A stretch of DNA of 64,000 nt from NCBI GenBank assembly GCA_010093815.1, contig ML996568.1; one strand, written 5' to 3'. How positions within the stretch are numbered: the first letter of the stretch is position 1; each line of letters opens with the position of its first letter. This document shows positions 21,993 to 30,125 of this stretch, piece after piece. The DNA comes from Pseudovirgaria hyperparasitica. Its lineage: Eukaryota. The position numbers and the translations under genes were made by a program. The notes beneath the pieces are model-generated. The model was not told where the DNA came from and did not search any database. It saw only the letters and a list, made by a program, of their open reading frames with translations.

Positions 21993-24900
21993 TCACTCAG
22001 CGCTAGTACCAGCTTTTCGTGGACTGTCGGCGAACACGTCTCTCCCAGAGCCACCAGGACCAAGTATCCTTGATCCTATCGTCTGTGTCTTTGGCGTCGT
22101 CAGAGGAGTTTGTGCCCTACTGTTGCCTCTTTCTGGAGTCTGCAGTCCAAAATCACTCATTTCACGTCGTCCACCGCTTGTTCCGGGTCGGCCTGAGTCT
22201 TGACCTTGAAGTCTCCAGCCCACCTTGTTTCCCTCAATATACAATTCTTGGATCATCCTCTTTGTTATGCCTGCGTCCTCGAACTCGCGCCACTTGCGCC
22301 AAAGCCTGAGTGCCATATATGCGTCTTCAATTGAGTCGTGTCCAAGTTCCTTGTCGTTCTGAAAGTCTACCGTTCTGAAGAAGTGCCACGCAAGAAATTT
22401 GAGTTTAATCAGCCGTTTTGTCTCCTCATCATGGAACTTCTTAACAGTGTCAAAAACTTGCGCTGGTGGTATAAGGATGTTGATTGTACGGAAGTCTTTG
22501 ATGAGACCGTGACCGATGAAGACGCACCCCAGATTCAGGAGAAGCCATAACTTTTTGTATATAACTTTAAGAGGCACAGGCGCGTGTCTAGAAATGTTAG
22601 GGTTTAGATCACCTTCGTGGATGCCAGACCATTCTGTCAAGTAGTCCGTGATAGGCTCAGTGACAATCACATGGTCATCAATGAATGGCACACCTTCATC
22701 GATGCCATCACCTCGCAGTACTGATACTCGTGCAAGAGCTAGTCGCTGAGGGCGGGAAATCTGTTTGGTTCCTTCTGGTGTGATCTCGATCTCTTCCTTG
22801 CGAACCTCGACAAACTCAGCATCGATGGCGATGGGCATGCCCTTTCGTGGGTATTCAGTATGCTGATCAAGTAAGCGAAACTTCTTGACATCCTGTTCTT
22901 GTCTAAACAATCTGGTCAGTAGCCTACGCTTCAGATAAGGTAAATAAGAAGTACCTGTGCGACCATGACTGAAACAAAGCGCTTGTGTCGAGGTTCTCTT
23001 TCCATCCATCGTCTACTTCATGTCTATATGATTTCCTTTGGTATGCCAGTATCACTGGAAGCTTTGATCTGGCATCGAAACGTAGTGCCTTTGCAACAGG
23101 TATTGATCTTACGTGGTGATCATTGAAGAGATACCATTTGTTTTCCAATCCCTTCTCAGCGGAGGAAGGGCTCACTGTGTATGATCAGATTAGATTCTTG
23201 ACCGAATGATAGCTATCTTACCATTGATAATTGACACAAGGTGCTGTTTTGGTGCCTTATCGGGGGTTACATCGCACACCACCCCGATCAGCTCATACAA
23301 CTGCATGTCATGTGCACCGCGCTGCAAATGGGTCTTGATGTCATTGCCCTCAAAGCAGAAGAACTGGCCCTGCTGAAGAATGACGCCAATCTCCTGTGGT
23401 AACCAATTCGGTATCGTCCACAGCGATTTTGAATCCTCATTGCCACTTCCAGCTTTTGTATTGACCAGTAAAACGCCTGGGATGTCTGTAATATTCTTGA
23501 GACGATTGATAGACTGATACCGTCGACAAGTACTGCACCATCCTCGACTAGCCGTGGGTCCTTCAACACTCAGCTTAAGAATCTGAGAAAACGTCATGTT
23601 TCGGAGTGTGCGACCGGGGCTTCGGCGAGTTGTTTGAGCGTACGACAGCTCTTGCACCATGGTCTTCGAGACACTCGGATTAGCGCTTGCCACCTTGCAT
23701 ACCGAACAGCGCATGGTCTCTTGCATAGGCAGAGTGAAGATTTGTTCTAATGGGGAGGCTCCGGTAAAAATTCGTGCTGCATCGAGTACGAAGCGTTTGA
23801 CAAGAAACCCGTTAAGAGCTTGAACCATAGAGGCTAGGTGGTTATTTCCCGAAGCTTGGATCAGTATTCCAGCCGCCCGTGCTTCTTGAAGCGTCTCCAT
23901 AGTTTTCAAAAAGTTACTCGGATGACAGTTGGGTGCATCCGTCTTCTCCAGCATATCGATGAGATATCCTAGCTGACACAAAAGACACGTCTCATATAAA
24001 CACGAAGATGCAGCATGCCAAAGAGCCGCATTTCTTATCCACGGTACGAATCTGAAGAGCTGGAGGAGCGAGTTGGCGTAAGAATTATTGACATGAGTCT
24101 CGAGACCTGGGTATGGAGTGGAATTCCAGTATCTGAGCAATGTTAGCAGCTGTTGAGACTTCAGCTGAGTAGAGTAGACCTACCGGAAGTCATAATCTTC
24201 AATGCCAAATCTGCTGTACTGAATGTCCATAGGCTGATAGATACGTGAATCTTCTTTCCCATCTTGCCCATCTTTATCAATGATGGTTTCAAAGGTTTCG
24301 CTGCGCCTCCTCTCGCTGTTCATTGAAGGCGCGGTCCTGGCTTTAGCACGGTCACTCAAAAATTTAGGAACTGCCATAGCCTGAACCACTCGATGCGAAG
24401 ACCTTGTCTTCTCCGCCAAGTTCCTCGGCTTTGACTTGTCAGGATTACTTGTCCATCCTCCAGACTTCACGGCTTGCGTGAGAAGTGTCTCGTCGATTAG
24501 TGGCGGTGGGGCTCCAACTTCGTATATAGTATGGCCCGGCCAGTTGGATAGCAATGGTCCTCTATACACCGGCACTCCAATCTTGTTCAGCGGCTCATCC
24601 CATGACAACTCCTGGGTTGGTATCTGATCGTACCATTCTAGCTTGCCATTACTATATTCGGAAATGCGGAATTTTGAAGCTGACCCATGAAGACGTAACT
24701 GTCCATAAGTATCGGTGTAAGCAATTGATTCGCCCGCGGCTGATAGCTCAAAGCATTGAAGGTAGACCTCATTGAAGAGTGGCAATTGATGCATGCCTGT
24801 TGCACTGGAGGAATTCACATCGACCAGTTGAATATACCCGGTGTGGGAGGCAATCATAGCGCTCGCATGCAATCTTGGATGCATCCGGACAAATCCTACA

Positions 24901-25904
24901 GGAAGAGTACATGAAATGGGCGTGAGTGGCTTCATAGCCTTCATGTCGAATACGTTGGCATGACTGTCGTAATATGGTACCCCATCCAGCCCTCTTCTAG
25001 ACCCGCCGCAGGTGATGACAAGGTGACCGCTTGCATCGATATCGTTGACCCAACCGCCGTGAGCTTCCCATTCCTTTTTGAGTTGGAATTTACTCGTATC
25101 GAGGAAATGAACGTTTCCAAAGTTCGTACAGGCACAGATGTACTGGCCTGTACTTTTCATCCTCGTATAGTGTGCTACCGCATTCATCTACAATAAATCA
25201 GCGACGTGCATAGCAAAAAGTCTGAGCTTACCGTTTGAATGATAGATCCCTTCTCAATATCAATTACAAACATGGTATCTTGTTGTCCCGCAACTACAAG
25301 CTCCTGCGCAGCCTTAGAAGTAAAAGTCATACAATGGAGGTCCTCGAATCCATCGTACCTGTTAGTTTGATCAGCACTGTTATCGCCAAGGAAGGTGTCG
25401 AGGAAGGCTTGAGGTTCCTTACTCGAGATGCCATTGTGTTACTCCGCGTCGATTCGACAGATGTACACTCTTTGGAGATACCGATAGCACGCCTTTGTCA
25501 AAGACCAGAATTTGTCTGACAGACTGAACCTGTTTTATTTGGTCCCTTATAATGTCCCTATGCGCCCGGAACCTTGTGTATGCGTGGTATTGTCGGAGAT
25601 TGTCGATATGAAACGATGCTACAGTGCCCTATGGGTAGGAAGTCATATGAGCAGTTTGCCCCCTGAGTACCCCCAGTTGGAAACGTACTCACGCGGTCGG
25701 TCCCCGCCCATAGTAGCTCCTGATATGGATCGAGCGCGATCGCAGTAGGTTGGGGAGAAGTGAAAGCAGTTGCATGCTGTCCGTGAGGTGTAGGAGCAGC
25801 TAAAGGAATCGCCGCAATCTGGAAGATGGTTCCGATACTCAGTAAGTTCTGCCTGGTAGCTTGATGTGTGTGTATGCTCGTACCTCTCCCCAGTCTCCGT
25901 CCAT
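21993..25904 (-). CDS. PAN2: PAN2 poly(A) nuclease catalytic subunit (WD40 + pseudo-USP + DEDD exonuclease); multiple introns
   Basis: MDGDWGE|IAAIPL..DPYQELLWAG, IQYSRFGIEDYDFR, GLETHVNNSYANSLLQ (USP Cys absent), WYLFND, IAIDAEFV, FIGHGL..DF, HDSIEDA. Confidence 0.95.
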
Positions 25905-26369: not shown

Positions 26370-29241
26370 ATGGCGAGCCACAGGCGCACGAAAGACATCT
26401 CGTACGATGAGGATGATTTGGACGACTATGACGAAGACTATGGCGATGGAGATTATGGCGAAGATGGTGAGATGAGCCTACTTCAAAACTCAGCCGACGC
26501 TGACCACGATCGCTATATAGGCATCAGCGCATCGGATCGAGGTATGAGACAAAACAACACCATGAGTGACCAACATCAGCCCTCAGTCTAACGAGGCGAT
26601 CGCGCAGAACAACTCCGACAGTGTACCGTAAAAGTAAAATCAGCATTAGGCTCAGAGTACATAATCTCGGATCAAGAAATTCAGGAGGCATTGTGGCACT
26701 ACTATTATGATATACACAAGTCCATCACATATCTGAAGAGTATGGACATATCGTATATGCGATAATACAGTTGCTAATGTCGATAGATAAGCACGCGACT
26801 CCGACCACGAATCTCAAGCAACCGAAAGTAACAAAACCGGCCTCTAAGTTTGACCAAGCAGTGACCGCTGCGGCAAGGGCGGTTCCTAAAGCTATCAAAG
26901 GTAGGTCCAGCACTTCAAATTTCTTCTCGGAACGAAACATACGTCTTCAATATAGCCAGAGCCTTCACAGACGCGCAGGCCACACATGTACGTCTCACTA
27001 CCGCCTGGATCAGTAATATATATTCTGACCGACACTCCCTAGATCCAGTACCTTCGACCTCGTATCCGCTTCCGAGGCCGTTGCCTGCTACATTATTGTA
27101 TGCTGTTGATGTGACAAACTTTTTTGAAGATACTCCGTGGCTCGCTGTTCCTCCTCACAGAACGAGCAACATGATCATCCAATCAAAGGTTCCTCGTGGC
27201 GGTCTACTCGGAGGTTCATCCAAGCCTTCCAAGCTGGCCGCTCTCGCAGCTGCAAGGAAGAAGAAGCAACAGGAGCAAGAAGAATCCAGATCGGGTACTC
27301 AGAATGCTACCAGAGAGGCGGCCCGCGCCGTGTCGATGCTTGATCGCCTTGGGGACAAACAGAAGCCGTCATCTGATGCAGCTATCGATATGCTGAAACC
27401 GCAACCCATTACCGTAGATAGTGAGGTCATATCTCAGCAGAAACAATACCCAGTCCGGATTAAAAAAAGTCAAAGCCCTCCTCCAATACAGGTACAGCCT
27501 CGGACGTCGGACGAACAGCCTCCTGAACCCGAATTCGAAGTTTCTGATCTGGTCGCACATCCCTCCATATTTGCTACGACGGTAGCTGGGCACCAATCCA
27601 GCCAGATGGATTTTTTTCCTTTGCCTCATGTTTCCAGCGTGTTTCCATTATATGTACCCCGAGAGGAGGCATTTGCTAAAAGTAATCCATTCCTAGGACC
27701 AAGCCCTGACGATGTCGTAACGTCCGCCCAATCACAGTCCAAAGGTTCGATCCAGCAGTAAAGGTCTGAAGAATGTCCACTGATATTAATCAGGAAATCT
27801 TGGCAAGAGCACAACGTCCAAAGTTGGGGACGCGAGCAACGATGCCGGAGGTCTCGCCAATGGTGTTGCAAAGATCACTGTGGAAGAATCTGTGAGGATC
27901 AAAAGCAAAAACCTCGACGTTAAAAAAGAGTTCGAGAGATCGAACATGAAGCGAGCAATGAATTTCGTTGTCATTGGTAAGAATTTTGAAGTTTAAGTTT
28001 CTGAGCCATGCTGATGAATTTTAGGTCATGTTGATCACGGAAAGAGTACACTGATGGGTCGACTACTATATGATTTGAAAGTTGTTGACGAGCGTTCACT
28101 ATCGAAGTTGAGAAAAGAGGCCGAGACCATTGGGAAATCGTCTTTTGCTTTTGCTTGGGTTATGGACCAAACGTCAGAGGAACGCGAACGAGGCGTGACT
28201 GTCGATATAGCGACAAACAGCTTCGAGACCGACAGCACTCGGTTCACGATTCTTGATGCCCCAGGACATCGCGACTTTATCCCAAACATGATCGCGGGTG
28301 CGAGTCAGGCAGATATCGCCGTACTCGTTATTGATGCGTCGACGAACAGCTTTGAATCCGGGCTCAAGGGCCAGACGAAAGAACATGCTCTGCTTGCCAG
28401 AAGCATTGGCGTTCAACGTCTTATCATCGCCGTCAACAAGATGGATTCCGCCAAATGGTCTCAGGATCGATACCAGGAGATCTGCCAACAAATGTCAGCC
28501 TTTCTATCGTCAGCAGGCTTTCAGAGTTCCAAATTTACATTTGTGCCTTGTGCCGGATTGACAGGCGACAATGTCACTAGACAGACCACGGATGAAGCAG
28601 CAAGGTGGTACAAGGGCAACACCTTGATCGAGGAGCTAGAAGCCTCAGAGCCTACTGTTCGGTCCATGAGCAAGTCTCTCCGCATGACAGTTGGCGATGT
28701 CTTCCGCGGCGGTATCACAAACCCCGTCTCAGTCTCCGGTCGAATTGACTCAGGAACCCTGCAGATCGGTGATTCGATACTAGCCATGCCCAGCGCGGAA
28801 TTAGCATTTATCAAAGGGATTGAAATTGACAATGAAGGTGCAGATTGGGCCGTCGCTGGTCAGATAGTCACACTTCATCTGGCGGACATAGATCCTGTAC
28901 ACTTACGACCGGGCGATATCATCTGCCACACTACAGAACCGGTCCAAAACGTAGCACACTTTACGGCAAAGATTCTTGCATTTGAGCATGTCATGCCAAT
29001 GTCCCTCAACGTGCATCGTGGTCGACTGAATATGGCTGGCAAGGTGACAAGGCTGATTTCAACGCTGGACAAGAGTACAGGGCAAGTGCTACGGAAGAAA
29101 CCGAGGATCCTGCAGCCAGGTAGCGTGGCAAGGGTCGAGGTAGAAATGGAGAAGTCAATACCTCTGGAGGCAGGTATCAGAATAGTGCTCAGATCAGAGG
29201 CACAAACGATTGCTACAGGACTGATAGAGAGTGTAAGATGA
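26370..29241 (+). CDS. HBS1: Hbs1 (eRF3/EF1A-like GTPase) gene containing a Ski7-motif cassette exon
   Basis: HBS1 N-domain IQEALWHYYYDIHKSITYLK. VVI|GHVDHGKSTLMGRLL, FAWVMD..EERERGVT, DAPGHRDF, NKMD. Exons about 26370-26466, 26521-26541, 26608-26739, 26787-26900, 27043-27744, 27794-27976, 28025-29241. Confidence 0.95.
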
Positions 29242-29454: not shown

Positions 29455-30101
29455 TCACCTTTTCTTCTTTGATACTACTTTCTCAAATCCATCTTCGTCA
29501 ATCTCTGGGACGCGTGGATCTTTCTTGGTTGCGTGTATAAGCGCAGGCGCCTCATCCATGTTTACATCATCATCATCACTGTTGTATTCATCGCTGTCAG
29601 CCTCCTCTTCTCTGTCCTCAACCTCGCCCTTTACAATTTCCTCCCGTCCCTGCCTCTCGGTCCACAGCCTCTGCCACTCATCCACAGTCGCGAAGATACC
29701 TTCCGTGCACTCCTTCCACACTTTCAGGATATTTGCTACCACTGTCTCTTCACTGTCGTCCTCAACGTCCACATCGAATTCCGCGGACATGACGTCCAGC
29801 AGCATGAACTGTATCTCATCGCCGGGCGTGGTGGGGTCTTTCAGTAGTTGGTCGGCGATGGCACCCGCGAACCAGTCGCGCTTTTCAGACGTGTTGCCAC
29901 CGCCCCAGCCTTCTTGCACGGCTTTGGTGAGGGCGCTCCATTGCGAGAGCGCATGCCATACTCCGAGGCCAAATTTTTCCTCGAAAAGTTCTGCGGGGTT
30001 TAGTAGAAGACGCTGAGCAGATGTAAGATAGACGAACTCGGGTCGACTTCGTTTACAACTGGGATGGGTTGCGGTTGGGATGGAGCATTTTGTGTTGCCA
30101 T
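29455..30101 (-). CDS. TSR2: Pre-rRNA-processing protein Tsr2; one intron (about 29991-30037)
   Basis: Spliced W.AL..AVQEGWGG (WGG motif), KRDWFAGAI, EFDVDVEDDS and an acidic tail ending DEDGFEKV..KKKR. Confidence 0.9.
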
Positions 30102-30125
30102 GGTGTGTGTGTGTGTCTGTGTGTG
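30102..30125. repeat. Imperfect (GT)n microsatellite directly 5' of the TSR2 start
   Basis: ggtgtgtgtgtgtgtctgtgtgtg. Confidence 0.8.

Follow-up and report, generated by a model that had tools for sequence, protein, structure and literature searches.

Structure of the locus

The window, by which we mean the whole 64,000-nucleotide stretch of Pseudovirgaria hyperparasitica DNA analysed here, sits on one contig (C4) of a 35.4-Mb fungal assembly and carries a SKI7/HBS1 gene on its + strand, running from an ATG at 26370 to a TGA at 29241 and interrupted by six introns. Gene features given below lie on the + strand unless stated otherwise. Coding exon 1 (26370..26466) opens with the ATG at 26370, encodes an acidic N-terminus and is followed by a 54-nt GT..AG joint in the transcript contigs of both sequencing runs. 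Coding exon 2 (26521..26541), a micro-exon of 21 nt, separates introns 1 and 2, has a joint on each side and is included in both runs. Coding exon 3 (26608..26739), bounded by contig joints, encodes the HBS1 N-terminal domain (Pfam HBS1_N, PF08938; E 2.3e-16, above the cut-off), and coding exon 4 (26787..26900), supported by the model and the contigs, closes at a common phase-1 donor, aag/GTAGGT (26901).

Two acceptors can be paired with this donor. The proximal one ends a 142-nt intron 4 (26901..27042) with a branch sequence TTCTGAC (27023-27029) and a TAG (27040-27042); the bin 26919-27035 within it had no contig depth in either run. Use of the proximal acceptor, and only that, includes an alternative Ski7 segment (27043..27696; 654 nt, 218 codons), which is mostly low-complexity linker with short motifs. 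These are an S1-like motif, SKLAALAAARKKK (27228..27266), labelled S1 after PMC3597508 Fig. S3, a SKI7-like PSxF motif, AHPSIFA (27555..27575), seen in the sequence and in homologues, and motif S3, NPFLGPSPDDVV (F..PSPDD; 27684-27719). The distal 3' splice signal lies inside this coding sequence (27675..27696), with a branch-like GCTAAA (27675-27680) and a phase-1 TAG (27694-27696), and it cuts motif S3 between F-L and G-PSPDD.

Downstream, a 48-nt exon common to both forms (27697..27744, defined by contig joints) encodes (G)PSPDDVVTSAQSQSK and is followed by a 49-nt intron (27745..27793) with a non-consensus donor, aag/GTTCGA, which is spliced out in the main contig. When retained, this intron reads GSIQQ and then TAA (27759-27761). 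A linker exon up to G1 of the GTPase (27794..27976, from sequence and contigs) and a 48-nt intron before G1 (27977..28024; donor GTAAGA, whose orthologous donors formed our control set) precede the last exon (28025..29241). This encodes Hbs1 translational GTPase domains 1-3 (Pfam GTP_EFTU and others), with G1 GHVDHGKST, G3 DAPGH and the stop TGA at 29239-29241. The predicted products are 603 aa for the distal form, 821 aa for the long form, 587 aa for a skip of the whole segment and 360 aa for the intron-retained form. A preliminary description of this DNA had already recorded the 702-nt interval 27043-27744 with its phase-1 ends, the donor at 26901, the acceptor ending at 27042, the motifs SKLAALAAARKKK, AHPSIFA and NPFLGPSPDDVV, the in-frame 587-aa product obtained by skipping 26901-27793, and the weak donor GTTCGA at 27745 with a TAA at 27759-27761 on retention of the 49-nt intron; all of these were confirmed in the sequence.

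On the flanks, a PAN2 deadenylase gene (PAN2_N, UCH_1, RNase_T; about 22000-25650, - strand) lies head to head with SKI7/HBS1 within ~1 kb, and TSR2 (WGG domain; about 29455-30120, - strand) is convergent with it. Among related loci with enough flank, the PAN2 pairing was found in 0/26 and the TSR2 pairing in 0/20.

Identity of the encoded proteins

The best PDB match of the GTPase was HBS1L (5lzw; E 1.5e-108), followed by 3mca and 3p26, which are listed as EF1-alpha-like and which we take to be yeast Hbs1. G1 (GHVDHGKST) and the catalytic His of G3 (DAPGH) were intact. The two features that mark membership of the Hbs1 group, an HBS1_N domain and an eEF1A-like GTPase closest to Hbs1, were both found, and by homology the protein is expected to bind Dom34/Pelota and rescue stalled ribosomes.

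The nearest named relatives of the alternative segment were from Dothideomycetes (Glonium, Zopfia and Saccharata; 40-44% identity). Conservation of its motifs in relatives was borne out: all 106 segment homologues carried the S1-like and F..PSPDD motifs and 92/106 fitted the PSxF pattern. Because the homologues were found through their resemblance to the segment, these figures tell that the motifs occur together, not how common they are. The segment had no Pfam match and no meaningful PDB match, so its Ski7 identity rests on the short motifs. S1 and S3 were both present in the long form when compared with PMC3597508 Fig. S3, and the metazoan consensus for the PSxF region is given as A+PShFAahL (PMC6143672).

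At genome level, the segment had one match and the GTPase eight. The next two GTPase loci were read, from sequence features, as probable eRF3 (Q/N-rich N-terminus) and eEF1A, and four were weaker (E 4e-24 or weaker). The eRF3-like HBS1 paralogue (L001, G000:C4:890500-894000) lies ~65 kb upstream on the same contig. A single HBS1-type locus was thus found, apparently with no separate SKI7 paralogue in this genome, a search in which a very diverged SKI7 could be missed. Genes for Ski2_N and Csl4 (EXOSC1) proteins were present, and the long form would be expected, by homology, to bridge the Ski2-3-8 complex and the exosome. The view that one gene serves both Hbs1 and a Ski7-type protein, a principle already known, stood, while the accompanying proposal that a cassette skip switches between them in this organism did not, for the reasons given below.

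Acceptor use in transcript contigs

RNA evidence consisted of assembled contigs from two runs of one sample in one study, with library type unrecorded. The runs were read as spliced RNA because their contigs skip six GT..AG stretches (54, 66, 47, 796, 49 and 48 nt), identical in both (2/2 runs). The 796-nt skip corresponds to 26901-27696 and hence to the distal acceptor: the main contig joins 26900^27697 and then 27744^27794 in 2/2 runs. Joining 26900 to 27697 yields the 603-aa protein, which reads ...KAIK-GPSPDDVV... across the joint. A second contig, starting exactly at 27043 both times, extended to 27670 in one run and to 27478 in the other, at about one-fifth of the depth of the main contig (184 vs 849 and 70 vs 341; these are per-contig figures and not expression levels). 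Cover of 27745-27793, the retained 49-nt intron, was found in no contig of either run, and contigs show presence only. The main spliced contig also passes the HBS1 stop to 29600, with ~480-500 further bases, into the convergent TSR2, which suggests either overlapping 3' ends or merely the merging of two unstranded transcripts.

These joints bear directly on how the short form is made. The preliminary description had treated 27043-27744 as a single cassette exon that is skipped whole, giving the 587-aa Hbs1 through 26900^27794, and had overlooked the acceptor at 27696 inside it, which was joined to 26900 in 2/2 runs. The skip would keep the frame, and because its donor at 27745 is weak, the 48-nt exon could be left out in a minor product. 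However, in both runs the main contig is joined through the acceptor at 27696, includes the 48-nt exon and so keeps GPSPDDVV, neither the distal acceptor nor its branch-like signal is disrupted in this organism, and the joint 26900^27794 was found in the contigs of neither run, where rare variants can be dropped. We therefore regard whole-segment skipping as an unlikely account of the switch in this fungus: as the main route it is contradicted, and as a minor isoform it may survive.

The segment contigs pose a second question, since the joint 26900^27043 was found in neither run and these contigs carried no piece of exon 4. An internal start for the segment, for which Candida albicans provides a precedent (PMC3597508), would account for this missing connection. 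In relatives, however, the annotated long forms continue from HBS1_N to the segment, and alignment A1 shows no conserved Met ahead of S1. Furthermore, both contigs begin exactly after a canonical branch sequence and TAG, where a transcription start would not be expected twice. An internal start is accordingly very improbable, and we infer that the segment joins exon 4 through the proximal acceptor.

The distal acceptor in related fungi

A motif scan of metagenome contigs returned at least 116 stretches. We removed 27 in which the Phe was missing or neither a supporting motif nor a GTPase was found (including the spliced L020 described below and a few true short loci) and 23 near-duplicates, leaving 66 loci besides the window among the matches listed. 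A few of these 66 are probably not ascomycetes, and two (L034 and L069) had no protein match. Eleven loci with HBS1_N and S3 in one open frame were considered as possible transcripts and rejected, as none was demonstrably spliced.

Among the matches listed, the A that creates a YAG was present in 30/42 loci with a fourfold x codon in F-x-G/E/D/A and missing from 12, compared to YAG in 430/1562 control codon pairs taken from the same frames. A CTRA sequence 8-26 nt upstream of the YAG occurred in 26/30 of these loci versus 40/430 controls, again among the matches listed; the loci in this conservation test are related, the counts are not independent and the statistics are only indicative. One Aureobasidium-like contig (L020) was a short form already spliced, with its joint at the position corresponding to 26900^27697.

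The L020 linker was used as a query and its best 120 matches were examined; 101 were new, and 32 of those were shorter than 650 aa. SPDD was kept in 18/32 of these short proteins and lacking in 14, while the preceding Phe was present in 0/32; the SPDD counts are not frequencies, because the query favours SPDD forms. The 14 without SPDD comprised 12 clean skip forms, one odd model and one that could not be parsed (all within the best 120 matches). The 12 skip forms join the N-terminal part directly to the GTPase linker and are mostly from Pleosporales, and two come from ~2-kb Logan contigs. The skip-form proteins without S3 were P0143, P0153, P0157, P0166, P0168, P0172, P0175, P0177, P0178, P0181, P0196 and P0200. 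That these short Hbs1 proteins, mostly from Pleosporales, lack S3 suggests that this order skips the whole segment, as basidiomycetes do. Loci without the distal YAG were often nearest to Pleosporales or Sordariomycete proteins, and those nearest to Alternaria, Paraphoma, Chaetomium and Fusarium proteins mostly lacked it (among the matches listed). Together with the skip forms (12/32 short proteins from the best 120 matches), this counts in favour of the cassette reading. Filamentous ascomycetes thus include both architectures, of which the distal acceptor is the one used in this organism.

A probable switch between two acceptors

The explanation that we favour, with a probability of roughly 0.85, is a single filamentous-ascomycete SKI7/HBS1 gene in which one donor (26901) and two competing acceptors make either Hbs1 or a Ski7-type adaptor. 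In most pre-mRNAs, the distal acceptor at 27696 and then the weak donor would be used, giving a 603-aa Hbs1 composed of HBS1_N, a short linker and the GTPase, with a cut S3 lacking the Phe; judged by its homologues in L. kluyveri, yeast and human, this form would be expected to deliver Dom34/Pelota to stalled ribosomes. In a minority, the proximal acceptor at 27042 would add 218 residues with S1, PSxF and the whole of S3, and the resulting Ski7-type adaptor would presumably connect the Ski2-3-8 helicase with the exosome. Splicing of the next intron would make this form 821 aa long; retention would shorten it to 360 aa.

In support of two acceptors, the contigs of 2/2 runs show a GT..AG joint for every one of the six introns, intron 4 being in its distal version, and the second contig starts at 27043. 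The locus is single, Ski2_N and Csl4 are present, the distal YAG is conserved and the L020 joint falls at the same place. As a counterweight, the segment contigs end at 27670 and 27478 and do not contain exon 4, and the RNA comes from one sample, as contigs alone.

The weak donor and a putative GTPase-less product

A [KQR]-G site followed S3 in 63/67 loci (window included) among the matches listed. Five such sites, being neither GT nor GC, did not enter the hexamer counts, which cover 57. The donor GTTCG occurred in 28/57 loci versus 0/26 control pre-G1 donors. A purine at +3 was found in 15/57 loci versus 25/26 control donors, and G at +5 in 48/57 versus 23/26. A read-through stop within 15 residues was present in 53/57 loci versus 16/26 controls. 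The last three residues before the stop were K or R in 60/141 positions versus 4/39 in controls, and K/R frequency elsewhere was 21/141 and 32/141 in the other two frames and 20/141 past the stop. The K-G site was not GT in 12/33 loci without the distal YAG versus 2/29 with it, a comparison in which the true donor may differ in some loci. All of these counts, from the donor hexamers onwards, are among the matches listed, and since the loci are related to one another, their statistics are no more than indicative. Across 11 close pairs, some of them not independent, identity was 186/232 (0.80) before the stop, 147/198 (0.74) after it and 0.73 at third positions.

Individual loci departed from this pattern. 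In L009, L022, L053, L069 and L071 the K-G site was GA or GG, with the short tail and stop still there; by their sequences, these loci must use a nearby GC/GT donor, a non-canonical donor or a skip of the whole segment. In the lichen-fungus-like loci L054 and L099, the intron after S3 was seemingly lost and the frame continued toward the GTPase. Six database proteins with HBS1_N and without the GTPase (P0023, P0032, P0073, P0079, P0080 and P0089) were considered as evidence for a truncated product and set aside as likely genomic read-throughs: P0023, placed beside P0035, reads through intron positions, and the other five look alike.

We consider the chances evenly balanced that the working Ski7 is the GTPase-less 360-aa protein, which the preliminary description had already put forward as a third product, made when proximal-acceptor transcripts often retain the 49-nt intron, a proposal that is compatible with the two-acceptor explanation. 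The weak GTTCG donor, early stop and basic tail kept in relatives argue for it, as does decay of the K-G site where the distal YAG is missing (12/33 vs 2/29; both among the matches listed). Cryptococcus and Ustilago have been proposed to make the same truncation (PMC3597508 Text S1), and in human the HBS1LV3 isoform is devoid of the GTPase (PMC5389692, PMC6143672). Against it, 27745-27793 was covered by no contig, the fungus's own tail, GSIQQ, is not basic, identity in close pairs was only slightly higher before the stop (186/232 vs 147/198), the intron appears lost in L054 and L099, and the six database proteins without a GTPase look like genomic read-throughs. Moreover, because the stop lies 1.5 kb short of the end and an intron follows it, such a transcript might be subject to NMD, as has been argued for the 'poison intron' of Arabidopsis (PMC6143672).

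A wider proposal, which we hold tentatively and at somewhat less than even odds, is that in filamentous ascomycetes the working Ski7 is GTPase-less like HBS1LV3 and arises from coupling of the proximal acceptor with retention of the short intron. The donor would have been kept weak and the first intron codons would serve as a selected basic tail, while loss of the distal acceptor in some lineages (Pleosporales, many Sordariomycetes) would have been accompanied by a move to whole-segment skipping, upon which the donor decayed. If coupled retention is true, the long Ski7 with a GTPase given in most annotations would be a minor or mis-annotated form. Among the titles and abstracts searched, we found no description of retention of this intron in Pezizomycotina, a result that does not imply absence from print. 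A transcriptome survey of splicing changes in this gene was reportedly published in 2018 (Marshall et al., PNAS) and may already cover both the retention and the lineage switch.

Comparison with known systems

Marshall et al. 2013 (PMC3597508) used RT-PCR to describe two 3' splice sites just upstream of S3 in the SKI7/HBS1 genes of A. nidulans, Saitoella and Lachancea, and the long form of L. kluyveri complements ski7 and the short form hbs1. Like the gene described here, those of A. nidulans, Saitoella complicata and L. kluyveri are single, with one donor and two acceptors, the distal one next to S3; in each case the long form adds S1 and the Ski7 segment and the GTPase is common to both forms. 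The preliminary description had held that the local architecture might be new; it matches the published Pezizomycotina arrangement and is not new, because that of A. nidulans (second intron, site just upstream of S3) has been published (PMC3597508). Differences lie in detail. The Saitoella short form keeps the whole of S3, whereas here the distal acceptor inside S3 removes the Phe (PMC3597508 Fig. S3), and the A. nidulans gene has four introns compared to six here (PMC3597508).

In basidiomycetes, the same study reported exon skipping and proposed a GTPase-less Ski7 from an unspliced intron after S3 (PMC3597508). Cryptococcus neoformans and Ustilago maydis share with this locus a poor donor just after S3 and a stop soon after (PMC3597508). 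In them, however, Hbs1 comes from exon skipping; this locus uses the distal acceptor instead, and its main mRNA has had the intron after S3 removed.

Human HBS1LV3 (Kalisiak et al., PMC5389692) has the shared N-terminus, a PSxF-type helix motif and SPDD near the end of a GTPase-less product, and would be alike if the retained form exists here. Unlike here, it is made with an alternative last exon that has its own poly(A) site (PMC5389692), and its RxxxFxxxL is not matched exactly by the H-P-S-I-F-A-T-T-V of this protein. In Arabidopsis At5g10630 (HBS1/SKI7; Brunkard and Baker, PMC6143672), as here, the short form keeps the Patch 4-like SPDD region and the alternative piece belongs to the minor form (~20% there). 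That gene differs in having a true cassette exon, a zinc finger and a retained intron that was read as unproductive (PMC6143672).

Biological meaning

This locus adds a further example of an ancient splicing switch that has already been published, and by itself it matters little. It also shows a branch point and acceptor maintained within a conserved protein motif. The comparative side result is of modest value and bears on which Ski7 protein filamentous fungi make. Many of the ~800-aa models in databases may not be the main Ski7 form, and the form that is made bears on whether nonstop decay in filamentous fungi can use a Ski7 GTPase.
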